From Moniliella sp. 'wahieum' (taxonomy: Eukaryota), in NCBI GenBank assembly GCA_003971905.1, contig RSEE01000082.1, forward strand, positions 186,001-250,000: 64,000 bases of DNA, written 5' to 3'. Below the pieces are notes generated by a model. The model searched no databases. It was not told the origin of the DNA and was given only the letters and a program-made list of their open reading frames with translations. This document shows, piece after piece, positions 12,560-44,900 of the stretch (position 1 is its first letter; each line of letters opens with the position of its first letter). The position numbers and the translations under genes were made by a program.

Positions 12560-15500
12560 TTAGCTTTCCTCCTGCACAAAGGCGGTAAGGATGGAGCTGA
12601 GCACGTTGGGCATGTCCTTGGTCTCGGGGCAGACAAATGCCTTGCCTGGCAGGGCACGCGCAAAGTGCTGTGCCTCGGACCCATTCTTATCGATAAAGAT
12701 GATGGCCGAACGCACCTTGTCGCCCCCTTGTTCAAAGCACGAGACAAGATGGGTACCGTGATCCCGTACCGCGACAGTGGGCGTCCGACATGCCAATCAC
12801 AAAACGCGCATCCGCCTCTTCCTTGGCCAAGTCGATGGCCGACTGCTCAAAGGAAGAGACAGTGTTGTCGCCGCTGTCCGTGTACTGCATATACGCCACC
12901 ATGTCACGTAGGACTAATAGCACCGAGAACAGAGTGATTCCAGTTAGCACCTGAAGCACGAGAGCGAGCAAACCACACACCGAACCAGAACCACACGTAC
13001 CTTTCCACTTGTCACCCTGCGTCCGCGGCGGCTTGTTGGCCGGGATAAGGACGATGGAGTTGCCATCGCCATTGTGTCCGACCAAGTCCCAGACGAACTT
13101 GCCCGGATCAGCATGCTGCATGGCTTCCATGATCATCGTCACCGTCTTCACCTCCCGGTCCAGACGTCCGTCAAACTGCATCACATACATGCTGGCCGAC
13201 AAGTCGACCAAAAACCGGATACGTTTCGGCTTGGTCTGCGGCGCGCCAGGCTCGGGCGGCTGCTCTTGCCGCCGACGGAAAATGTTGCGTTCGCCCGTCA
13301 GGCCATCGGCCAAGCGCCGTTCGTCCAGCTCGCCCTCCTGCTGACGGGAGAGCCATTGTCGTTCGTGCGCAGACGCCTGCAATGCATCAAAGATGCCTCG
13401 CAGCGCACGGATTTGCGGGGCCATCTCGGACTGGTACGCATGCAACGTCGCGCCCTCGGTCGCTGTCAAGCCGTCCTCGGCCAACTTCTTAGCCAAGGCC
13501 GCTAAGGCCATCTCCTTGGCCTGCTTGCGCACATGTTCCGGCACCGCATCCTTCATCTCCTGCGGCACTTGGTGGATATCGTGACCGGTATACAGACGCT
13601 CGTACCCTCCCCTGCCTCCGAGGCCAGCGTGTCCCTGCCGCCCGTACCACCGCGCCAGGTATTGCCACCGACATGCGGGTTGTTCTCGGGATCGATCTTG
13701 CCCTCCTTGGGCTGATCCAGCGACGTGTCCTTCCACTCTCCCGTGGGTCAAACTTGATGAGTTTCGGTGCCGCCTTGCCTTCCTTTTGTCCAAGTGCCGC
13801 TTGGGCTGCCTTGGCGGCTGCTGCAGCGCGCACGGCGGCCAAACTCATGCTGGACGTATCGATGCCGTAGCGGTCGAGGATGCCAAGCACATGCGACATG
13901 GCTCTCGGGTCGGTGGAGGTCAAACGCAAGTGTATTGAGCAGCACAGAGCTCAGCTGTTCCTCAGGGAAATTCTCAAGGTGACGGACGAGATGAAGCAAT
14001 TCGCGCAACGAGTAGGGGTAGGCCACCAGGCCATCCACAAATGCTTGGCGCAGTTCATGGAAGGCCAAATCGAGGCGCTCCAACAGGTCACGCGGCACAC
14101 TGGGTGCGGCCTGTTGCAACAGTCGGATCTCCGAGTCGGGGTCCGGGTTCGACACGGCATAACAGCTAAACCCTTCTCCGATGACTTGGAGGAACTCGTT
14201 GCCCAAGAACGGGTACCCCGGCCGGTTCGATAACAAGATCAATCGGAAATCCGGATGGAGCAGAATGTCGTCAGGAGAGCCATGGCGCGACGAGGGCCGT
14301 ACCCTACGCCCGTCGGGAAGAGAAAGCTCTCCGCGCTCGGCGAGCGACTTGAACACTGCTGTCACGGCGGCCGACGCCTTGTCCGCCTCGTCAATCACCA
14401 TGATACGTCCTGTACGAATGGCGCGGACCAAGGGTGACTCGAGATAAGCAAGTTGCCCGTCCTTGAGCTGAACTTGCTGCAAGATGGAGGCCACCGTCGA
14501 GTCACGATGCAATTGGATGTACTCGCGGGGCCGACGGAGGAGCTGAAGCAAACGATCCACCAACTTGTTTTTGCCAGTGCCTTGGTTGCCCATCAGGAGG
14601 AGATGCTCACCAAGAAGATGCAAGTCCTCGGCCATCGCTTTCAGCAAGGCCGTCTGGTCGGGGTTGTTGTAAAACGACTTCATTGTCGGTACCAGCAGTT
14701 TCCCCTCGGGGTCCCTCTGGTCCACATCAAACAGGGGCACCTTCTCGGGCGGAGAGGAAGGTTCGGTAAGATCGGAAAAGACGAGAGAATCTCCCTCCAC
14801 CTCCGGATCCGCAAGAAGCGGAGGAGGACGGTACTGGAACGCGCCCTCTGCTCCGACGGGATAGATCCGATTCTGGACCAAGAGATCCAGCACCACCGTC
14901 CGCACGCCTTGGGCAAAAAGTCCACCAGCAAGGAACGTGATGAGCCAGTGCAGATCCGAATCGGGAAAGTGAGCCAGACGATGGGCCATGCGCAGCAGTT
15001 GACGCGTGCCGAGCCGACGCGACTTGGCCAGGGACAAGTTGGGATCGGCACTGAGTTTGCGGTACTGCGCCGCAAAGTCCAGCAGCGGTTCCAGCTGCTC
15101 GGGGGGGCACTCGGTGCGGTCCGCTACCACGTGAGCCTCTTCCTCTGGGTCCATAGGACTGGGCTGGACAAATCCAAACATGGTGCTCGACTCCTCGTCC
15201 AACCAGTCTCCTTTGGCCGCGGCAGCCGTGGCGACCAGTCGAAACGAAGGCTGAATCACGGGCAGCACCGCCCCGCCCGCTGCCTCGGCCAATTTTTCCC
15301 GCACCGTCGTAAGCGACAGCGGGGGATCGTCAGGGTGGGCGAGGATGAAGCGGTTCCCGTTCCAAAGTTCCGACTCGCGGTCGGTAGCCAGCCGAGCCAA
15401 GCTGCCCAGCGTGGGACCGAGCGTGTCCACCCCGGCCAAGTGCACCAGACGGCCCTCGACGGCTCCCTTGAGCAGAGGCGCCAGCTCCCACGTGGTACTG

Positions 15501-17522
15501 CCATCGGGTGCGGTCGCACGGCGCATGAGAAGCTCTTGACCACTAATGTCCTTGAAGAGATGGAGCGTCTCCAATGGATAACCAAGGATCGAAGCAAAGA
15601 TGCCAATCGAGGTTGAGGTGGATGACGAAGCTTGTCCGCTCACGCCCTTGCGTGCTACCGACGGGCTGTGCCGCCCGGCCAACGACGAGGGCAAAAGACA
15701 AATGTCGCGCCCGACCGCGTGCAGCTGGAGCATCAGAGTCAACTGGGCCATCATGCGCGGTGTGATGAGGATCCCGTCTTGCGTCGTTTCTCCTAGGGTG
15801 GGAACAGGGACCAAGGGCAGGGAGCCGCCCGGCGTGCGCAAGCGAACCACTTGGCCGTCTCGACTTGTTCAAACAGAAGCGAAACCTGGTTCGAAGCCGG
15901 GTCGGGCCGCTCGGCACGGATGATTCGGTAGCCCAAAAGCCCCACTCCTTCTTGAGCCGCCTCTTCGCCCAGGCCTTGACTCAGCCCCACAGCAGCCAAC
16001 AGCTCGGCGAGAAGCTTGTCCTGGGTATCGTCAAAGGTATGCATGACGGGGTACCCAGTACCCAACAGGGTCGCTGTAGAAGGAGCGATCAATGCTGCAG
16101 GGGGACGATTGGCTAGCTTTTTGAACGCCTCCATTTCCCGTCGAGCTTGCATGGCACGTTGGGTCGAATGCATCTGCAATGCATGCGACGAGGAAGCTGC
16201 CTTTTCCAGTTGGGCCTCAGGATTGACACGAGGCGGGGCAGAAGTGGGTTCGTCGTCCGCCTTCTCGCCCAATTTGGCCACAGCAGGGGCACGCGGGCCG
16301 GCAGGAACTGAGCAATTGTCTCATCAATCAGCGGGATCGCCGTGCCGGCCAAGTGAGGCAGTTGGGTGGTGGGGGGAGCCCCGTCTCGCCCGAGGCGACA
16401 TGGTTGTGCTCCCGGACCAAATGGCCCCACTGATAAAACAGTTTCTGTACCTCCAACCCTTCGGCTTGATGTGTTGGGTCCGGCGTACCTTCTACCCGAG
16501 CTGCCACGTCTGCCGAGCCCGTGTGACCCACATACCCTTCCACCCAGCGGCCTTGGAACCGGCTCCGAAAGGGGGGTCGAGCGGATGGCCCTTGTAGGAG
16601 GAACAGGGACTCCGATGGTGATCACGCGAAAGTTGGGGTGGACGGGAATGAAGCGGCTATGGCTACCGTCCTTTGCTCCGCCCCGTTGGGCTCCTCAGCC
16701 CGCGCTGCCTCGAGACGCTCGGCTGGGATAAGGTGCGTGCCATCGGGTAGGTTTTGTTCCCGGTTCTAAGCCCAAGGCGAGTCAGGATATGCAACGAAAA
16801 TTGGTTTGGCAGAGTCAAGAAAAAGGGCAACAACGTACCTCGAGAATGTTATTGAGGAGGGGGAGAATGTTCCTCGGCACGTTGGGTGCCTTCGAGAATG
16901 AGAAGTGCACCTTGCGTCATGGCACGCACACCGGTCCGTTGTGGTACACCAGCGACCGGCCTCCCTCCAAGTTACGAGTCTGGAGCAGATCCGCCTCGCC
17001 TACATCGCGGTGGAGCGAGACCAGCTCGTAGGGCAACTGAAGAAGCGCAGCAAACGTCAGGGCCAGGCGGCGTGCGTACGGCCCGGAGGGGAGAGAAGGA
17101 AGACATCCTGCCCCAAGCGCCACTTCTTGGCGAGCCATTCCAGATGCTCGGCGACCAAGGGGTCGGCCGTGTCGAGGAGGAGGCGGGGGGAGGGCAGGCG
17201 GGCTGGCTCGGCGGGGCGGGTGACAGGGAGGGACACGGCGCCGACATGGACGGTGCCAATGATGTCGTCAGACGCGGCGGTGGCCAGGAGACGGGTGCTG
17301 TGGGGGGTGGTGGGGGCGAGCTGGCGGGCCAAGGCCGCGACGCGCTGCTCGGGGGCGGGGCGGGGCGGGAGGGGGCGCCATGGGCCAGGGAGAGGTGGTG
17401 GTAGTGGAGGTGGGGGCGGTGGGGTGATGGAGGTGGTGATGGAGGTGGTGATGGAGGTGGTGATGGAGGTGGTGGCGGTGGAGGCGGGGAGGATGGGCAG
17501 CACGAAGCAGACGGAGGAGCAT
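12560..17522 (-). CDS. VWA8: VWA8 (KIAA0564)-like protein: tandem MoxR/dynein-related AAA+ modules plus C-terminal VWA domain; probable mitochondrial presequence
   Basis: HLEWLAKKWRLGQDVFLLSPPG; ELVSLHRDVGEADL; NFRVITIGVPVPP; Walker A GNQGTGKNK; YIQLHRDSTV; Walker B VIDEADKA; HPDFRLILLSNRPGYPFLGN; YPYSLREL; GLGGRGG; ERQWLSRQQEGELDERRLADGLTGE; MIDAS FLVDLSASMY; Arg/Leu-rich start MLLRLLRAAHPP. Confidence 0.9.
17424..17475. repeat. 12-bp coding tandem repeat (GTGATGGAGGTG)x4 in the VWA8 N-terminal region
   Basis: gtgatggaggtg repeated four times; encodes (TTSI)n on the minus strand. Confidence 0.85.
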
Positions 17523-29866: not shown

Positions 29867-30809
29867 TCTGGCAGGTAAGCGGAAGAGGTAGGGTGAGAGA
29901 CGAGAGACGAGAGGCGAGAGACGAGCGGCAGACGGGACGGCGAACCAGGTGGTGTGCGTGGGCTGTCCAGGGGTTGGGTGGGAGGGGGGGGATTTATTGC
30001 GCCAGTTGCTACACGCTGGTATCGGGCACAGGGTAGTATACATCCCATCAACCCTATTTATATTTGGAATGGCTGCGGCACGTGACGTACCCTCTCTGTT
30101 CGGCCTTTTCTTTGGTTGTCTGCCTCAAGTCCTCAGCCTCGGGGCGAGCAAGCGCAAGGGACACGTGAGCCCGGCGGTGGGATCCGTGCACACGCATGCG
30201 GCCACGACGCTTAGAACCACCGGGTTGGGAAGTACACCCGCACGCAGTTGGGCCACCCAGCCAAAGAGGTGGCGGGTGACGACAGGGAATGATTAATGGG
30301 GAGTGATCTAGTGATCGGTGATCGACAATCGACAATCGCCTCATCGATGATCTTATCAGAACGACGTATTGAAGCTGAAGGCACCAAAAGTTGTCCGCAC
30401 CTGGCCGACTATCGCGTCCATCCCCTCCTTTGGTAGTACACCGTCCCTGGCGCTCGGCACAGCAAGGCACCCGTTGTTACGTCCTGGGCTCGGCACCAGT
30501 CGCATGCCATGTCCCTACTTCCACATCACCTGTCTTAACCATAACAGCACAGAACGATAGTGTGGGGGGGGGGCTACATAAAAGAGTTCATTTAGTACAT
30601 CCCCATACTCCTCTACATCCCTGGTCGTGAGGCTGCTGGGTTGTGGAATGCATCCATTTCCCATCTCTGTTCCAGGCCTTTCGGGCGGCTCGAACATATG
30701 TCCAACCCCTGGCCACATCAGGTAAAACCGGGTTTGTTTTCTTTTATATTTCGCCCTGTGTAACTACATGCTGCATCACTTTTTCAGACGGGTGCTTGTC
30801 GCCCCTTTC

Positions 30810-32020
30810 TCACTTGTTCCCCTCTCCCTCCCTTCTCCAAAGCAAAAGAAGAAGGAGCTGATGCCCAAATACGCAGAACAGATATAGATGGCGCGACATG
30901 CGATTAAGTCTCGATATGGTACACTGCGGAACCGCTGGGCGACGGATGGCTGCTAGCTGCTGGCTGCTGGCTGCTGTGCAGTGGAGCAGAGAGCGCAGGG
31001 GGGCGGGGGGGGTATAATACGAAGCTACGCGTTCCATCCTAAGCGCTGTACTTGGTCCAGCCAGTCGGGCTGGAGGAGGGGACGGGGTTCGGGTCGGGAC
31101 GGAGGGATGCACGCGCCCGGGTCCAAAGGCGGGGGGGGAAGTGGTCGAGCGTGACGCAGCTAGGTCCAGCCGGAAAGAGTTGCAACACCATCTCGTGCGG
31201 GAGCACCAGCGGGCGACAAGATAACGTTGTGGGGCTCAGTGCGATCACTGTCACCGCCGGCAGACCAGGATGGACCAAGGGTCCTCCCGCCCACACTGCC
31301 TCTTCGTCCGACGCCAGCCCGACCCGGACCCCGCACGCGTGAAAGTGCGTGACCAAGCGCCCGTTGGCATAGAGCGTTATCCTGCCGGCCCGCCGACCTG
31401 TCCTGCCCCCCCCGCGGGACGCAAGCGCGCAACATTCGATCGTCGCGCGCTCGTAAGAGCGGGAAGGTGGTGTGCGGGGCAGTGGAGAGCGTGGCCTGGG
31501 TCCGCCGTCGAAAGGGGAAGAAGGTTGTGCCAGACTGATGCAGCAGGGGGAGGAGGGAGGTTGGCCAGTGGCCCTTGGGTGGCAAGGTAAGGATGGGTGG
31601 GACGGAGCCGGGGAAAAGATGCAATGCCCGGCCCAGAGCGCCGGGCAGGACCACCACCACTTCCACTTCCACCTCGGTCCCCTTGACATAGGCCTGTGTC
31701 CGGCTAGCTATCCCCGCATCCGTACGCGCGTCGGGCGGGAGGAAGAGAGTTGGTACCCTGTTCCTACGCAGCTCGTCTACCACTTCTCGTACTTGCTCCG
31801 CCCGCTTGCCCCCCGCGGAGGCACAACCAACACCCGACGGACCGGACAGCGCACACGTACCCCGCCCTCGTCTTGCCACCCCACGGGATACGGCGAGAGC
31901 GTACTCCTCGCCAGGATTGTGCCCGTGTGGGGCACAGGACATACCGACGCACAGCTGTAGGCACTGGGTGGGGTGAGGTGGGCGTGGGGCTGGCCGAGGA
32001 GGGGTGGGGGAGAGGCGCAT
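30810..32020 (-). CDS. Highly divergent NAD kinase homolog lacking catalytic motifs (probable pseudoenzyme or pseudogene); 3' end 31039 or 30810
   Basis: EVVVVLPGALGRALHLFPGSVPPILTL matches the NADK segment 'LVITLGGDGTVL.A..LF...VPPVLSF'. [21 protein letters not shown]...[39 protein letters not shown] matches the C-terminal 'SAGGPLVHP..PAILxTPICPHTLSFRPLVLP'. Confidence 0.7.
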
Positions 32021-32727
32021 TGCGATGGTGTGGGAGTGGGAGCGGGGGGCTGGGGGCGAGCCACCGTTGGTCCTGGCGGCGGGGGACAGCGGGGACTGGG
32101 GTAAGAGCGCGAGCGGATGGAGGCTGTGGTGGCTATGGTGGAGAAGGAGAAGCAGAAGGTGGTGGTGGCGAAGGAGGAGGAGCAGCTGCGTTCGATGCCC
32201 ATCTGGCCTGATCAGTTGATTAGCGTGAGTTGTGATTGATGATTGCGTCATGATTAAGATTATCGATGATCCATTTAGCCGCACGTCGCAAGTGGGCTCA
32301 GGCTCAGGCGCTCAGGCCTCCGCGGGGCTCAGCCTCTCAGCAAGGCTCCTGCTGAGACCGAGACGCTGAGGCAGGTCGTGCTCACTCGTGTTTGTGCTCA
32401 GACCAGGGCCTCAGATCGATCAGACCTCAGATCTCCGAGTGTAACTGTAAATCATGGAACGGGTAGTACTCGCAGCGAGTTGGAGCGGCAGTGGCCCTCG
32501 CGTGCGCTCGAGTACCTCCACCATCTCGGCATCCGTCAACACCGTTCTCTCCCTTGGGTCGTCCTATCCAACCCTCTCTCCTCCGCCCGCCGCTTGTTTG
32601 CCCTCCCACACTCTCTTTCTGCACGTGCGCCTCCTCCTGGGGGTGCCATCAATAAATTAGGTTACTGACGCCGCGCGCTCGCAATCTTCCCTCGGACGAC
32701 GTGTGTGTGTGTGTGCCCGCCGTGGCT

Positions 32728-32794
32728 AGTGAGGAGTGGCAGTGAGGAGTGGCAGTGAGGAGTGGCAGTGAGGAGTGGCAGTGAGGAGTGGCAG
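32728..32794. repeat. 13-bp tandem repeat (AGTGAGGAGTGGC)x5, preceded by a (GT)n run near 32700
   Basis: Five exact copies in the divergent intergenic region between the NADK-like gene and RPS4. Confidence 0.92.
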
Positions 32795-33211
32795 CAACAA
32801 GGCCAGCGAGTTGCACGAGCCCATGGAGCAGGCATGCCTGGCATACCACCGCTGACGCACCGACTTGCCCCCCCCGAGGCGATCCATGATCGATCCACGA
32901 CAGCCGGGCACCCGATCACGTGGCACGCGGAGTGCGAGCCGGACCAACCCTACGCACTAGGCTTTATTGCGGAATGGGCCAAAATTGACCGCTGTCCCGC
33001 ACCCGGGCCCTGTGGGGGACAGGTGTGGGGGTGTGGCCTGTCTAGGGTTGGGCCCACCACGCTGGAGCGCGTGGGCTGCTTGCTGGGTGCGGCGGCCTGG
33101 GCTCTGCCTCACCCCAACTCTTCTCCCCAAGCAAGCAAGGTACGTGCTTGGGTGCGGCGGTGCGGCTGGTGCGGGTGGGTCGAACGGCGAGCTGACAGGC
33201 GTGCTGGGCAG

Positions 33212-34001
33212 ATGGTCCGTGGTCCTCGCAAGCATCTCAAGCGGCTCGCAGCGCCGTCGAGCTGGATGGACAAGCTGGGTGGGGTGTACGCGCCGCGGCC
33301 CAGCACGGGTCCGCACAAGTTGCGCGAGAGTTTGCCGATGGTGGTGTTGCTGCGGAACCGGTTGAAGTATGCGCTGAATGGCCGAGAAGTCAACACGATT
33401 GTGCAGCAACGCCTGATCAAGGTGGACAACAAGGTGCGCACCGACATTACCTTCCCCACGGGCTTTATGGACGTGATTAGCATTGAAAAGTCGGGCGAGT
33501 ACTTCCGTATCCTCTACGACGTCAAGGGCCGCTTTGTCGTCCACCGCATCACGCCCGAAGAAGCAAGTTACAAGTTGCTCAAGGTGAAGCGCGCTGAGCT
33601 CGGCCCGCGCGGCGTGCCCCACATTGTCACCCACGACGGCCGCACCATCCGCTACCCGACCCGAAGTCAAGGCTGGCGACTCGATCAAGTTCAACTTGGT
33701 CGAGAACAAGTTGGAGGAGGTGATCAAGTTCCAGCAGGGCGCTTCGGTCATTGCCACTGGCGGTCGTAACCAGGGCCGGGTGGGCGTGATTGTCGGCCGT
33801 GACTCGCACCCTGGTGGATTTGACATTGTGCATGTGCGCGACCCCATTGGCCGCGAATTCTCCACCCGTATCGGTAACATCTTTGTTACCGGCACCGATG
33901 GCCAGCACTGGATTTCCCTCCCGCGCGGGGGTGGCATCAAGCTCACCATCACTGAGGAGCGCGACCAGCGCCGCGCCCAGCGCGAGGCGGCGGCCAACTA
34001 A
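33212..34001 (+). CDS. RPS4: 40S ribosomal protein S4 (eS4); consensus frameshift near 33660; probable 5'-UTR intron 33140-33211
   Basis: [58 protein letters not shown] / ..[41 protein letters not shown]. Confidence 0.97.
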
Positions 34002-36138: not shown

Positions 36139-39100
36139 ATGCACCCCCCGGCGCCCCCCGACCAGGTACGCACCCTGCCCTTGCCTGTGCTCCTCCTGCC
36201 GCTGACCCCCTTCCCCTCCATCCTGCCCGCCCAGCCGGCCATGCCCAGTGCGCGCCGCCCCGCCCGCTCCTCCATGGGCATCGCGTCCCTGCTCAACGAC
36301 CGCCCCCCGTCCCCCCCCAAGCGCAGCGCACCCTACTCGCCCTCCCCCGCCTCCCACCCGCCGCGCGTCCTGCCCCCACCCCCCTCGCCCACGAGCCCTC
36401 CTCTGCCGAGCCCCCCTCTGCCGAGCCCACACCCGCCGAGCCTGAGCCCGAGCCTGCCTGAGCCCGACCAGACCATTCCCGATCAGACCATGCCCGACCA
36501 GGCCATGCCCGACCAGACCATGCCCGACCAGACCAACCCCGACCAGCCGCCGCCCGAGTCCAAGCCGGCGCCCCGACTGCGCTTGACGCGCAAGAGTCGC
36601 CCCTCCCACAAGGCCGACCGGCCCAAGCCCAGCGAGCCTCCGTCGGCCAAGGCGCCCAAAGAAACCAAGCCCAAGGCGGAAAAGGCCAAGGCAGACAAGT
36701 CCAAGAGTGACAAGTCCAAGAGTGACAAGTCCAAGGCGGACAAGTCCAAGCAAGCTGGCGACAAGGCCGCGGACGCGGCTGCTGCCTGCCGCGGCTCCGG
36801 CCAAGCGCTCGCACAAGCGCCGCGTCGAGGACGGTCCTGAGGACAAGCGCAAACGCGCCCGCACCGAGGAAGAGCCCGACCTGGAGGCGCCCGAGAACGT
36901 GGCGTTGTGGGCGCCCGCGTTGGAACGCTACCGTTCCCAGGCCTACCTTCGTCGCGATGCTGTCGATGCGGCGTATGGGATGCTAGAGGACGAAGGGGAC
37001 GAGCGGACGTTGTCGGCGCTGGCAGCGGCGTACACGACGCGGTACAAGGCGGTGGTCCGGCAGGCCGAGCGTCGTCTCCGTGCCGAGCGGGCCAAGCAAC
37101 AAGAAGCACGCCAGCAACGAGAGCGTCTTCGTGCCCGTCGTCGCAAGGAAGAGGAACGAGAACATGCGGACCGGGTCGCGCGCGCCAGGCCAAGGCTCGT
37201 CGTCAGCAGCGAGAACAACAGATTGACCAAGAAATTTGGGAAACGCTCCATCCGCCTCGCGCCCCTGTGCGGGAGGAAGAGTCGGACGATGACGCGCCCC
37301 TCGCCTCGCGTTTCTTCTCGGTCGATTCGCCCCGCTTGACCAAGAGCAAGCAAGGGAGGAAGAAGTGTTTGTGCCGAGCGGCTTGGCCACTCCCGAGGAG
37401 GAGCCCACCTACGACCAGGACGGGTACCGGATCCTCACCTCGGCCCGTGCTGCCGCCCTCGACGCGTCGCACCGCAAGATTTGGACCGGGCTCGCGAAGC
37501 GGGACGTACCGAAAATGTTGCGCGTGGTGCAGATGGGCCAAGCGAACCGGTCGGCGTATTGGCGCCGAATTAGCGTCGTGGTGCAGCGGGAGGCAAAGCG
37601 GGTCGCCAAGCAAGCCAAGACGGTCAAGGACGTACAGACGCGCGGCCGGCGTGCGATGCGCGAAGTGTTGCTCTTCTGGCGTAAAAACGAGAAGGAGGAA
37701 CGAGAACTTCGCAAGGCCGCCGAGAAGGCCGCAGCAGAGAAGGCACGTCAAGATGAGGAACGAAGGGAGGCTCAGCGTCAGGCGCGCAAACTCAACTTCC
37801 TCATCACCCAGACCGAACTTTACTCGCACTTTGTCGGATCCAAGCTCAAGACGGAGCAGTCGGAGCAATCTGCCGACACCACCTCTGTTGCCGCCCCCCG
37901 TCTTCTTCCCGCGCCCTCATCACCGAGCTGCCCCCTTCGGGCGACGGCGAGTTGGAAGCGATTGATTTTGACGAGGAGGACGAGACGAACCTACGAGCGC
38001 ATGCGGCTCGCAATGCGCAAGCCGCCGTGACGGCGGCGAAAGAAAAAGCGCAAGCGTTTGATCACCAGGCAGCGCAAGAGCGCCGTGCCCACGAGGCAGC
38101 CGGAGCAGCGTCAGCCTCTGGCCAAGGCGAGGCGAGCAAGCAGCTGGACGATTTGAACTTTATGGACCCGTCAGGCATGGGCGAGGTGAGGTGACAGTGG
38201 CGCAACCCAAGATGCTCACCTGCGAACTGAAGGAGTACCAGCTCAAAGGGCTCAATTGGCTCGCCAACCTGTACGAGCAGGGCATCAATGGCATCTTGGC
38301 CGACGAGATGGGCTTGGGCAAGACGGTGCAAAGCATCAGCCTGATGGCCTACCTCGCCGAGGTGCACGACATTTGGGGCCTTTCCTCGTCATCTCTCCTT
38401 CCTCGACCTTGCACAATTGGCAGCAGGAGATCACCAAGTTTGTGCCCCAGCTCAAGGTGCTTCCCTACTGGGGCAGCGTCAAGGACCGTACCGTGCTCCG
38501 CAAGTTTTTCAGCAAGAACTCCATCTACACCCGCGACGCCCCTTTTCACGTCTTGGTCACCTCCTACCAACTGGCCGTGTCGGATGAGAAGTACCTGAAC
38601 CGGGTCAAGTGGCAGTACATGGTCCTGGACGAAGCGCAAGCCATCAAGTCGTCCTCGTCGGCACGGTGGAAGACGTTGCTGGGGTTCAACTGCCGCAACC
38701 GCTTGTTGCTGACGGGCACGCCCGTGCAGAACAGCATGCAAGAGCTTTGGGCGTTGCTTCACTTTATCATGCCTTCTCTCTTTGACAATCACGACGAGTT
38801 TTCCGAATGGTTCTCGCGCGACATTGAGGCCAATGCGGAAAACAAGGGTGCCCTCAACGAGCACCACTCCACCGTCTCCACATGATCCTCAAGCCGTTCA
38901 TGCTGCGTCGCGTCAAGAAGAATGTGCAGAACCAGCTCGGGGAAAGGTGGAGGTGGATCTGTTGTGCGACATGTCCACGGCAACGGCAGATGTACAATGC
39001 GCTCAAGGAGCGCGTGTCCATCACCGAACTCGTCCGTGCCGGCGCGGCAGATTCGGACCAAGGTCTGAAGAGCTTGATGAACTTGGTCATGCAGTTCCGC

Positions 39101-41925: not shown

Positions 41926-44900
41926 TTACTCGGCCAGGGCCGGGTCAAACGCATCGTGCAGCAAGTTCTCCAGTTCGCGAAGATGATGTTTCTTGATGCC
42001 GGTCGCGACCGAGGCCGAGGGGGGCGCGAAGCGCACTTGGCAAACGTGTTGCGGTGGTGCTGCGAGTGGCAGGCGGCAGTACGCAGCCGCGGACCGACGT
42101 AGAACCAACATCCATTGTTCAGTGGTTCCTGCACCCACGCCAGGTCCGCATTCGGGTACTTGTCCAAGTGCGGCGTCAATCGTACGGGAAGGGCGAAATC
42201 TGTTCCAACCGACTGATCGCCACATCGTTCCGGCCCAAGTCGCGACGACGCTTCAGTAGCTCATAGTACACCTGCCCCGTGCAAATAATGTGCCGTGATC
42301 TGCTCGGGCGGCAGGAGCGCATCTTGGCCTTCGGTCTGGTGCGGCTCGGCAATGTATTTTTGGAACCCACCGGCACCGGGAAGGAAGTCGGCCACCTCGG
42401 AGCGCGCCATCGGGTGACGCAGGAGCGACTTGGACATAAAGTGGATCAAGGGCTTGCGGAAATCACGGTGCACTTGCCGCCGCAGCACATGGAAGTAGTT
42501 GGCAGGGGTGGTGGTGTAGACAGCTGCATGTTGCAGTCTTGGTGTTGCCGGTTCATCTCTGCCTCGGTAGGGAAGTGGAACGGATTGTCGTCGCAGAGCT
42601 GGAGGAAGCGCTCGATACGCGCCGAGGAATGTTCAGGTCCTTGACCATCGTATCCATGGGGCAAACTCAGTACCAAACCCGTGCGTTGGAGCCACTTGCG
42701 CTCCCCGGAGGCAATGAACTGGTCAATGATGCACTGCGCATTGTTGGCAAAATCGCCAAACTGCGCTTCCCACATCGTCAAGTTCTTGGGATCGACCAAC
42801 GAGTAGCCCAGCTCAAACCCAGCGCACCGTATTCCGACAGCGACGAGTTGCACACCTCAAACGTGGCCTGATGCGCGTCGACATGCTCAAGCGGAGTATA
42901 GGTCCGTTCGGTCTTTGGTCATGGAGCACAGCATGACGCTGCGAAAAGGTACCACGCTCCACGTCTTGGCCACCAACACGAACGTAATACCCTTCCTTGA
43001 CGAGCGAGCCAAATGCCAAGGCTTCTCCTGTGGACATGTCGATTCCCTTGCCCGTCTCGATCGTCTTGGCCCGGTTGCGAAGGATACGAGCCAAGTTGCT
43101 GTGAACGGTGAAATCGTCAGGATAAGAGGACACTGTCTTGCCAATGTGCTCGACAAGCGCTTCACTGATCCCAGTCTCCTTGTGGTCCAGGATCTTCTCC
43201 TTGAGCTCCTTGGGCGAGGGGAAACCCTCCCAGGCGGAAGAGAGCCATTCGCGCTCACCGGGATTGTAGTCCTTGGCTTTGACCGCCGACTGCTCCAGCA
43301 AACCCCACACCCACTTGCCATGCTCGTCCACCTGCTGCTGGGTAAAGGTTCCTTCCTTGACCAGTTCCTGAGCATAGAGCGTGAGCGTAGTGGGCTTCTT
43401 GGCGATCGCCTCGTACATGCGCGGCTGGGTGAACGAAGGTTGGTCCGTCTCGTTGTGCCCGTAGCGACGGTAACACACCAAGTCAATCACCACATCCTTC
43501 TTGAACTTGTACCGCCAGTCGGCCGCCAACTGGCAGACAAACGTGACGGCCTCCGTGTCGTCGCCATTGACGTGGAAGATAGGGGCGTCAATGGCCTTGG
43601 CCAAGTCCGAAGGGTACGGCGTCGAGCGCGCAAAGCGCGGGTCGGTAGTAAACCCAATCTGGTTGTTGACAATAATGTGGATCGTGCCGCCAGTCGAGTA
43701 GTTGGGCAAATTGTACATGCCCATCGTCTCGTATACCACGCCCTGTCCGGCAAACGCAGCATCGCCATGCAACAAAAGAGCCACCGAGGACTTGTGTTCC
43801 TTGTCCCCGGCAAAGTCCTGCAGCGCACGCGTCTTGCCGGTCACCACCGGGTCCTCCGCTTCCAAGTGCGACGGGTTGGCCACCAGAGACAGAGCCACCT
43901 TGCGACCCGAAGGGGTCGGACGGATGTAATTGGCACCCAAGTGGTACTTGACGTCTCCGCCGCCATCCGAGCCATCGTCGGCACCCTTGAACTGGTTCAG
44001 GATCCCCTCGACCGGACGACGAATCACGTTGGCAATCACGTTGAGACGACGACCACGATGGGGCATGCCAATCGTCACGTTGCTGGCGCCGTGTTCGACA
44101 ATCCGATCAATCAGCGCTTTGATACCAGGAATCAGCGACTCGCCGCCCTCGAGACCAAAGCGTTTGTCGGTCGGGAACTTGCTAGCGATGAAGCGCTCAA
44201 AGTTGTCGGACCACATGAGGCGGTCGAGAATCTGCTTCTTTTGGTCGGGCGAGTACTTGTACGGCTCGGGGCACTCGATGCGCTCGCGCAGCCAGTCGCA
44301 CCGGCTGCGGTCGGGAATGTGCATGTACTGGTACCCAATGTGGCCGCAGTACACTTTTTTGCACGTATCAATCAACTCGCCAATCGTCATCTCCTTGGTC
44401 GTGGTGGCGAAATGAGGGAGCAGACCCGATCCCAGAGACACCTTCTTGCTCATGTCGGCGGGGGTAAAGCCATAGTACTCCAGCGTCAGCTCTTCGGGCA
44501 CCTTGTTGCGGGGCGCAATGCCCAGCGGGTCCAAGTCGGCCAGACGGTGGCCCCGGACCTGGAACGCACGGACCAGCAGCTGGACCTGGCGAGCAGAGGC
44601 ACAGGCACATGGAGAGGACACGTCAGCAGCAACGCCCAGCGCACGGGCGGAGCAAGGGCACCAACGAAAGAAGCGACGTACCTTGAGCGTGTCATCCACC
44701 TGCACCGCGGTCGAGGGCCCGAGCGGGGCTGGATCAGCGAAGCGTCGCTGAGCATGGGCGGGGGCGTGACGGCGTTCTGGGAGGGCAGGCCCTTGTCGAG
44801 GCCCGAGAAGTAGGCGTTCCAGCTGGCGTGGACGCTGGCGGGGTCCTGGCGCCACTGGCGGTACATCTCGTCGACGTAGTAGCCGTTGTTGGAGCTGAGG

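Follow-up and report, generated by a model that had tools for sequence, protein, structure and literature searches.

A candidate catalytically dead NAD kinase paralogue in Moniliella sp. 'wahieum'

Introduction

Does a gene that resembles NAD kinase (NADK) but lacks the signatures of catalysis encode a non-catalytic protein, or is it a remnant in decay? The question is raised by a locus in the genome of Moniliella sp. 'wahieum' (assembly GCA_003971905.1), on contig RSEE01000082.1. We analysed the 64,000-nucleotide stretch from 186,001 to 250,000 of this contig, hereafter called the window, and all positions below are counted from its first letter. Judged from profile comparisons, the locus is derived from an NAD kinase. 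Our favored interpretation, to which we give about an even chance, is that the sequence represents a full-length, intron-less NADK paralogue that is catalytically dead and that serves, or served until very recently, as a non-catalytic pseudoenzyme.

To our knowledge, cells have no route to NADP+ other than NAD kinase, and the ways in which they tune this enzyme are only partly understood. Fungal NAD kinases are represented by Utr1, Yef1 and Pos5. Pseudoenzymes such as the pseudokinases retain the fold of a kinase and act as scaffolds or allosteric partners. If the interpretation given above is true, a non-catalytic member of the NADK family would be a regulator of a new kind and would found a new family of pseudoenzymes. 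An initial annotation of the locus, made from the sequence alone, indeed described an NADK homologue that had lost all three catalytic signatures, and suggested that it could be a regulatory subunit able to hetero-oligomerise with an active NADK, of a type not known to be described in fungi. We likewise found no description of a catalytically inactive NAD kinase or pseudo-NADK in the literature searched.

Results

The locus carries both domains of NAD kinase in the expected order

Three-frame reading of the minus strand between 32400 and 30700 yields two long open reading frames (ORFs), one in frame f2 that runs from 32311 to 31160 (383 codons) and one in frame f0 that runs from 31707 to 31039 (222 codons) and ends with TAG. 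The NADK-derived reading frame draws on both. It extends on the minus strand from about 31942 to 31039, comprises about 300 codons, and is intron-less, with no gap of intron size in either the three-frame reading or the HMMER alignments. Its TAG stop falls approximately at the usual end of NADK domains, and the sequence past this stop (30810-31038) matches nothing. The interval of 30810 to 32020 initially assigned to the homologue is therefore too wide, since there is only weak coding signal upstream of about 31942. All peptide strings quoted in its support are present, but they lie on the minus strand and are split over the two frames (Table 1). The G+C content is 66% in the NADK-like locus and 59% in the window.

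The match to NAD kinase is strongest in the core of the C-terminal domain. Specifically, the Pfam family NAD_kinase_C (PF20143) is detected in the f0 ORF with an E value of 5.7e-6 and 26.5 bits (cut-off 23.7), the match being limited to residues 140-179 of the ORF and to profile positions 49-88 of 126. A profile of our own, built from 85 sequences taken from the database matches to the f0 ORF, scores 62 bits against this ORF (E 3e-18 among the 1447 ORFs of the window). The same core is recovered by hhalign (99%, E 1.9e-18), by frameshift-aware alignment of profile positions 171-254 to nucleotides 31404-31159 (84.9 bits), and by HMMER on a protein in which the two frames are joined (hmm positions 173-252, E 7.4e-21). 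This frame-joined protein, with an X at the break, has 301 residues and presents the N domain followed by the C domain, as expected for an NADK.

The N-terminal scaffold around the position of the GGDG motif gives a weaker but significant signal. It is found by hhalign with a P value of 0.0013, by HMMER on the frame-joined protein with an E value of 0.0073 (hmm positions 40-108), and by frameshift-aware alignment with 20.65 bits, a score reached by none of 150 and none of 700 dinucleotide shuffles in two sets. This result is unaffected by the way in which our profile was assembled from matches to the C part. Furthermore, the spacing between the two parts fits an NADK, with 184 nt standing for 62 profile positions. 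The claim that the locus is an NADK homologue thus stands, with profile matches far above chance in the C-terminal core and weaker ones in the N-terminal part.

Relatives of the locus are distant. A HMMER search among 1.84 billion representative proteins yields 151 matches with E values of 0.001 or less, of which the best reaches 2.5e-8 and none falls below 1e-10. The best matches to the C-terminal core are 31-49% identical over about 60-135 residues; of the ten best, three are assigned to an organism by name, namely a choanoflagellate, a glaucophyte and a jakobid. All 150 main tblastn matches lie at 31063-31506, and a word-based protein search with the 383-residue translation of the f2 ORF returned none among 8000 scored candidates at E<=0.01. 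The C-terminal tail is collinear with those of single eukaryotic NADKs (Table 1), pairing VTLDH with FDG and PNPVP with PYPLP; its similarity to the profile is not significant, since 260 of 400 shuffles reach its score. The single locus (L001) returned by a metagenome scan was rejected as a relative, because it proved to be a chance match to back-translated DHFPPRLW, with a best NADK E value of 1.4 and no similarity at the DNA level. In a protein atlas based on language-model features, the nearest entries to the N part are NAD(P)-binding SDR fragments (0.90, about 140 of 256 features), a match that is rated as weak and at chance level.

The catalytic signatures of NAD kinase are missing

Two of the three catalytic signatures can be placed in the alignment, and both are replaced. 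GGDG is absent from all frames of the locus. In conserved region II, the Asp of ADG is exchanged for Cys, and the TPTGSTAY segment reads LA--SDEE in both the own-profile and the hhalign alignments, such that two codons are missing and the Ser alone is kept. The AGGP part of the same region is retained. Other frames do not restore the region II motif, and when frameshifts are made cheap, 171 of 300 shuffles reach the score of the block. Likewise, no hidden GGDG, NE/D or TPTGSTAY was found in other frames, either by eye or by frameshift-aware alignment.

The third signature, the NE/D motif, would reside in a middle block of 184 nt for which the profile offers no guide. When profile positions 105-178 are aligned to it in any frame, the best score is 9.9 bits, which is reached by 201 of 400 shuffles. 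An apparent match of 20.3 bits, reached by only 2 of 300 shuffles, arises when frameshifts cost -1.5 bits. We rejected it as overfitted because it invokes many frame changes in 51 columns and because the signal is gone at penalties of -3 (61 of 300 shuffles) and -7 (201 of 400). Codon scores for the block are +2.5 bits in f2, -10.7 bits in f0 and -8.2 bits in f1, and the f2 reading has a G+C content of 0.62, 0.62 and 0.79 at codon positions 1, 2 and 3. In this reading, R-M-L-R-A-C at 31418-31435 resembles the RMRLxC strand of NADKs. No N-E/D precedes an RG context in f2, and an I-E occurs only in f0, which is probably out of frame here.

These observations alter one part of the initial description. 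The loss of GGDG and of ADG/TPTGSTAY is borne out by the profile alignments, but the reading of ATIECCALASRGG as the replacement for LNEVVIDRG is not confirmed. The block cannot be aligned to the profile, and coding-type periodicity is present in f2 only, so that this f0 string is probably an out-of-frame reading of DNA that codes in f2.

According to the mutagenesis summary in PMC8553519, the Asp of GGDG, the Asn and Glu of NE/D, and the Thr and Tyr of region II are vital in NADK. The same source describes an NAD site that spans the homodimer interface, with the Asp of ADG, at the start of region II, contributed by the neighboring subunit. Judged by its residues, the locus is not expected to encode an active NAD kinase, because the Asp residues of both GGDG and ADG are gone, as are the Thr and Tyr of region II, and because NE/D is absent or unrecognisable. 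Based on these losses together with the mutagenesis summary (PMC8553519), NAD+ phosphorylating activity is predicted to be absent.

Conservation spares the scaffold and not the motifs

If the locus were decaying uniformly, then scaffold and motifs should have faded together. We compared block scores, calculated as sums of match emissions, with those of nine genuine NADKs that had been left out of profile building. The N scaffold (profile positions 40-87 and 92-108) scores 38.1 bits against a median of 53.0 for the genuine enzymes, and the GGDG columns (88-91) score 1.9 against 13.7. The middle (109-170), for which genuine NADKs have a median of 77.5 bits, cannot be aligned. Positions 171-192 score 23.3 bits against 23.5, positions 193-210 score -6.2 against 53.0, and positions 211-250 score 72.5 against 93.5. 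The scaffold blocks therefore keep 72-99% of the score of a genuine enzyme, whereas the two alignable motif blocks keep at most 14%.

Residue shuffles reach the observed score in 0 of 300 cases for positions 40-108 (40.0 bits, including the GGDG columns), in 2 of 300 for positions 171-210, and in 0 of 300 for positions 211-250. When 32 strongly conserved columns, of which the locus keeps 16, are put to a change-point test, 26 of 2000 permutations match the observed result. By both the block scores and the change-point test, the selective loss proposed in the initial annotation is real in the sense that it is confined to blocks rather than uniform. This pattern argues against uniform neutral decay, which could not have wiped out the motif blocks while leaving about 75-100% of the signal in the scaffold. 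On these comparisons, the uneven, scaffold-sparing conservation is most readily accounted for if the locus evolved for a long time while encoding a translated but non-catalytic protein with the NADK fold.

The frame break lies in a homopolymer of an error-prone assembly

The frame-joined protein requires a single change of frame, which we place in a run of eight G residues (Table 1). Homology alone cannot place the break because the scores of 75 possible junctions are too flat, ranging from 62.3 to 65.9 bits with a peak at 31417 of only about 1 bit. Other genes in the window are informative in this regard. In the INO80 gene on the plus strand, the coding sequence of the SNF2 domain passes through three frames with no DNA between them, and a base is apparently missing at about 38378 and again at about 38870. 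Comparison with the conserved peptide reveals CC for CCC and CACCA-CTC at the two break sites (38360-38400 and 38850-38880), and these breaks are probably homopolymer errors of the assembly.

Similarly, when the gene for 2-oxoglutarate dehydrogenase E1 on the minus strand is compared with a protein that is 90% identical over 559 residues, the frame shifts at least four times in succession from 42915 to 41941, again with no gaps. Five sites were read; four of them are consistent with the loss of one base from a run of A, T, G or C, and the fifth is ambiguous. Together the two genes contain at least six frame breaks, and six are read as 1-nt homopolymer deletions. Errors are unevenly spread along the window, as the upstream 1677 nt of the dehydrogenase gene (44588-42912) lie in one frame. 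Because the assembly drops homopolymer bases in both of these genes, the frame break at the G8 run may equally be an assembly error and carries little weight as evidence of a pseudogene. This run and a G10 run at 30563-30572, which lies in the spacer that separates the promoter of the S21e gene from the NADK-like ORF, are the kind of site where the assembly is least reliable. Miscounted homopolymers inside essential genes affect every frame-based call in the window.

Open frame and coding signals

The homologous path through the two frames is free of stops over about 300 codons, and each of the two motif deletions removes two whole codons and keeps the frame. The initial annotation regarded the largely open frame as a hint of function. 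There are indeed no stops, but openness is cheap in DNA of 66% G+C, and an equally open path occurs in 2-5% of composition-matched shuffles (250 of 5000 dinucleotide shuffles for 732 nt and 88 of 5000 for 898 nt). Of 1000 shuffles, 3 contain an ORF as long as the 383 codons found here. As a measure of codon periodicity, the difference between G+C at third and second positions is 0.186 in the homologous frames, a value reached by 1 of 5000 shuffles and close to that of the window's real genes (0.22). Codon-usage scores are +0.13 for f2 and +0.05 for f0, such that f2 lies above and f0 just below the 95th percentile of off-frame readings (0.057, n=210). Amino-acid composition is uninformative, with a distance of 0.158 to real proteins and 0.156 to off-frame translations.

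Long stop-free ORFs also occur antisense to other genes of the window. Examples are ORFs of 668 residues at 42807-44810 (plus strand), 392 residues at 14438-15613 (plus strand) and 346 residues at 32960-33997 (minus strand), which lie opposite the genes for the dehydrogenase E1, an AAA_5 protein and S4e, respectively. In this genome, an open frame by itself carries little weight.

Upstream of the candidate ATG, f2 remains open for 123 further codons (31943-32311, minus strand). This segment is of low complexity, with runs of L, H, P and S that mirror a GAG/GAA-rich plus strand. Its coding signal is weak (G+C at the three codon positions 0.71/0.58/0.69, score -0.07 per codon), and it is probably a 5′ leader rather than protein.

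Genomic neighborhood

The locus is flanked by the genes for ribosomal proteins S21e and S4e (Table 1). Further out are genes for INO80, 2-oxoglutarate dehydrogenase E1, an inositol polyphosphate kinase, the AAA_5 protein and a TRAPP subunit. The 2-oxoglutarate dehydrogenase shares 75% identity with proteins of Tilletiopsis washingtonensis and other Ustilaginomycotina, and 90% with one further protein. These identities point to a basidiomycete yeast that lacks closely related annotated species.

A 15-nt motif occurs exactly twice in the 64 kb (0.06 expected), at 30341-30355 on the plus strand and at 32255-32269 on the minus strand. The two copies are inverted, 1.9 kb apart, and bracket the NADK-like ORF within two AT-richer blocks that are rich in GATC and ATCGAT. 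We considered transposon ends and set this explanation aside, as the similarity of the inverted copies stops after about 20 nt. The motif is more likely a cis-element shared by the promoters of the ribosomal-protein genes. A 13-nt unit, GTGGCAGTGAGGA, is repeated perfectly in tandem (5.5 copies) at 32722-32794, upstream of the S4e gene, and follows a (GT)7 run at 32701-32715.

Table 1. Positions of the NADK-like locus, its parts and its neighbors in the window
Feature	Position	Strand	Description
Whole NADK-derived frame	31039..31942	-	candidate ATG 31942-31940; f2 to the G8 run, then f0 to TAG 31041-31039
N-terminal Rossmann-like NADK scaffold	31589..31801	-	f2; profile positions 40-108
VVVLPGALGRALHLFPGSVPPIL	31589-31657	-	f2; string quoted in the initial annotation
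L-P-G-A for L-G-G-D-G-T	31637..31648	-	GGDG lost; two codons missing in frame; catalytic Asp absent
Middle block, GSLGFLT loop to NE/D motif	31405..31588	-	184 nt; no significant profile similarity
ATIECCALASRGG	31408-31446	-	f0; string quoted in the initial annotation; most likely an out-of-frame reading of f2-coding DNA
G8 homopolymer, change from f2 to f0	31406..31413	-	only frame break; one G fewer or two more fuses the frames
NADK C-terminal domain core	31159..31404	-	f0; profile positions 171-254; Pfam, own profile, hhalign, frameshift-aware alignment
Degenerate first half of conserved region II	31291..31341	-	ADG to ACG; following segment replaced, two codons missing in frame
HACG and following residues	31291-31341	-	f0; string quoted in the initial annotation
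Well-kept block from AGGPLVHP to the 10-residue segment	31198..31290	-	0/300 residue shuffles reach its score
AGGPLVHP	31267-31290	-	f0; string quoted in the initial annotation
10-residue retained downstream segment	31198-31227	-	f0; string quoted in the initial annotation
C-terminal tail to stop	31042..31158	-	collinear with tails of single eukaryotic NADKs (tblastn with P0007, P0005, P0019)
Ribosomal protein S21e	~29.6-29.9 kb	-	neighbor of the NADK-like locus
Ribosomal protein S4e	~33.2-34.0 kb	+	neighbor of the NADK-like locus

Discussion

A probable dead enzyme that may still be made

We infer that the NADK-like frame may still be translated at present. The resulting protein would retain the alpha/beta scaffold of the N-terminal part and the greater part of the C-terminal beta-sandwich. 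It would be devoid of GGDG (two codons deleted and no Asp remaining), of the NE/D region, and, in region II, of both the ADG Asp and the TPTGSTAY segment. Its most likely activity would be protein-protein scaffolding through the retained C-terminal domain. The notion of a regulatory subunit seems mechanistically reasonable, given that NADK sites are described as built across the dimer interface (PMC8553519). A heteromer that includes the ACG-bearing protein would carry a crippled NAD site because, according to PMC8553519, the Asp of ADG comes from the neighboring subunit. One can imagine that selection maintains the dead paralogue as a partner of an active NADK, with which it would pair via the C-terminal beta-sandwich, and that Cys in place of the Asp supplied in trans would disable the site, creating a stoichiometric brake on NADP+ synthesis. 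We consider this specific extension unlikely. If true, it would represent the first pseudoenzyme of the NADK family, found in a basidiomycete yeast.

Several observations weigh against a pseudoenzyme. The Pfam comparison recommended with the initial annotation detects NAD_kinase_C as described above, but NAD_kinase (PF01513, the N domain) has no match at E<=1, and the f2 ORF is without any Pfam family. Our own profile was drawn from matches to the C part of the locus itself, and the C-terminal scores it gives may therefore be flattered. The 61 codons of the middle block should also hold scaffold elements, and they match nothing. The G8 break calls for one extra or two missing bases, whereas the errors elsewhere in the window are single deletions. 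Codon-usage scores are at the low end of those of real genes (mean 0.245, 5th percentile 0.027, n=42). The composition, low in K, Q, D and I and high in G, P and V, is half-way to that of an off-frame translation, and the longest ORF of a shuffled sequence already has a median of 191 codons. When the columns are split as fixed beforehand, the unevenness of conservation is not significant (11/17 versus 3/9 columns, p 0.22; versus 5/15, p 0.16). Finally, neither an orthologue nor a motif-less NADK was found among the 1.84 billion representative proteins, and a joint loss of the motifs is seen in none of the 150 proteins nearest to the locus.

Alternative explanations

Could the locus be an ordinary pseudogene? 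In this case, a duplicated or resident NADK would be decaying without selection, the break at G8 would be real, and openness and periodicity would be leftovers helped by high G+C. We regard this as quite possible, if short of probable. It would account for a frame break in mid-gene together with the disappearance of all catalytic signatures, for a 61-codon block without any similarity, for the lack of homologues closer than E 2.5e-8 and of motif-less relatives, and for a low codon score with a composition drifting toward G, P, A, V and R. The open frame does not contradict it strongly, as long ORFs are common here (the shuffle median of 191 codons and the 668-residue ORF antisense to the dehydrogenase gene) and open paths arise in 2-5% of shuffles. 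The heterogeneity that speaks for selection fades with pre-fixed splits, yet the decay is strongly uneven by score (72-99% of scaffold against at most 14% of motif signal; 26 of 2000 permutations). Moreover, periodicity is nearly that of real genes (1 of 5000 shuffles), about 300 codons contain zero stops, both motif deletions are multiples of three, and the break coincides with the eight Gs in an assembly whose homopolymer errors are proven. A pseudoenzyme that died recently would have the same appearance, and hence the pseudogene overlaps with the pseudoenzyme in history and differs from it only in present function. Were the locus a mere pseudogene, the consequences would be small, yet it would illustrate clearly how scores taken block by block can tell a "dead enzyme, living fold" from plain decay.

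The same assembly errors invite the opposite suspicion, namely that a normal, active NADK has been garbled by sequencing or assembly. Several 1-nt homopolymer deletions do occur in essential genes of the window. The errors observed are single-base indels rather than substitutions, however, and substitution quality is good, as the dehydrogenase has 90% protein identity over 559 residues in one frame. In contrast, nearly every residue of the motif blocks differs within an uninterrupted frame, and GGDG, NE/D and TPTGSTAY reappear in no alternative frame, even with cheap frameshifts. We find this explanation barely credible. A protein that has reused the fold of NADK and DAG-kinase-type enzymes for a new ligand or partner, in a role unrelated to NADK regulation, would fit a kept scaffold with a rebuilt active site and a middle block of conserved length and wholly new sequence. 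The weak proximity of its N-part language-model features to NAD(P)-binding SDR fragments (0.90) agrees with such neofunctionalisation, but by the calibration of the atlas these matches do not exceed chance. No specific new function is indicated, and there are no relatives for comparison; we judge this possibility distinctly unlikely.

Comparison with known systems

With canonical NADKs (PF01513 plus PF20143; for example M. tuberculosis Ppnk, as described in PMC8553519), the locus shares the order of the two domains, their spacing and a length of about 300 residues. It also shares the N-terminal alpha/beta scaffold and the core of the C-terminal beta-sandwich with AGGPxVHP and TLSxRPxVLP. Unlike those enzymes, it lacks GGDG, NE/D, the Asp of ADG, and the Thr and Tyr of conserved region II. 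Its 150 nearest proteins, by comparison, keep GGDG in 97 of 100 cases, xDG in 150 of 150, G-S-[TS] in 147 of 150, and N[ED] in 138 of 141.

Processed or duplicated pseudogenes of housekeeping genes are similar to the locus in that it is a single copy without known relatives and has a dead active site, a frame break and an odd composition. The locus differs from them by its scaffold-sparing decay, the lack of stops, the in-frame deletions, and the position of the break at an error-prone homopolymer. With pseudoenzymes in general, it shares conservation that preserves the fold, the loss of catalytic residues, a reading frame free of stops though broken once at the G8 run, and coding periodicity.

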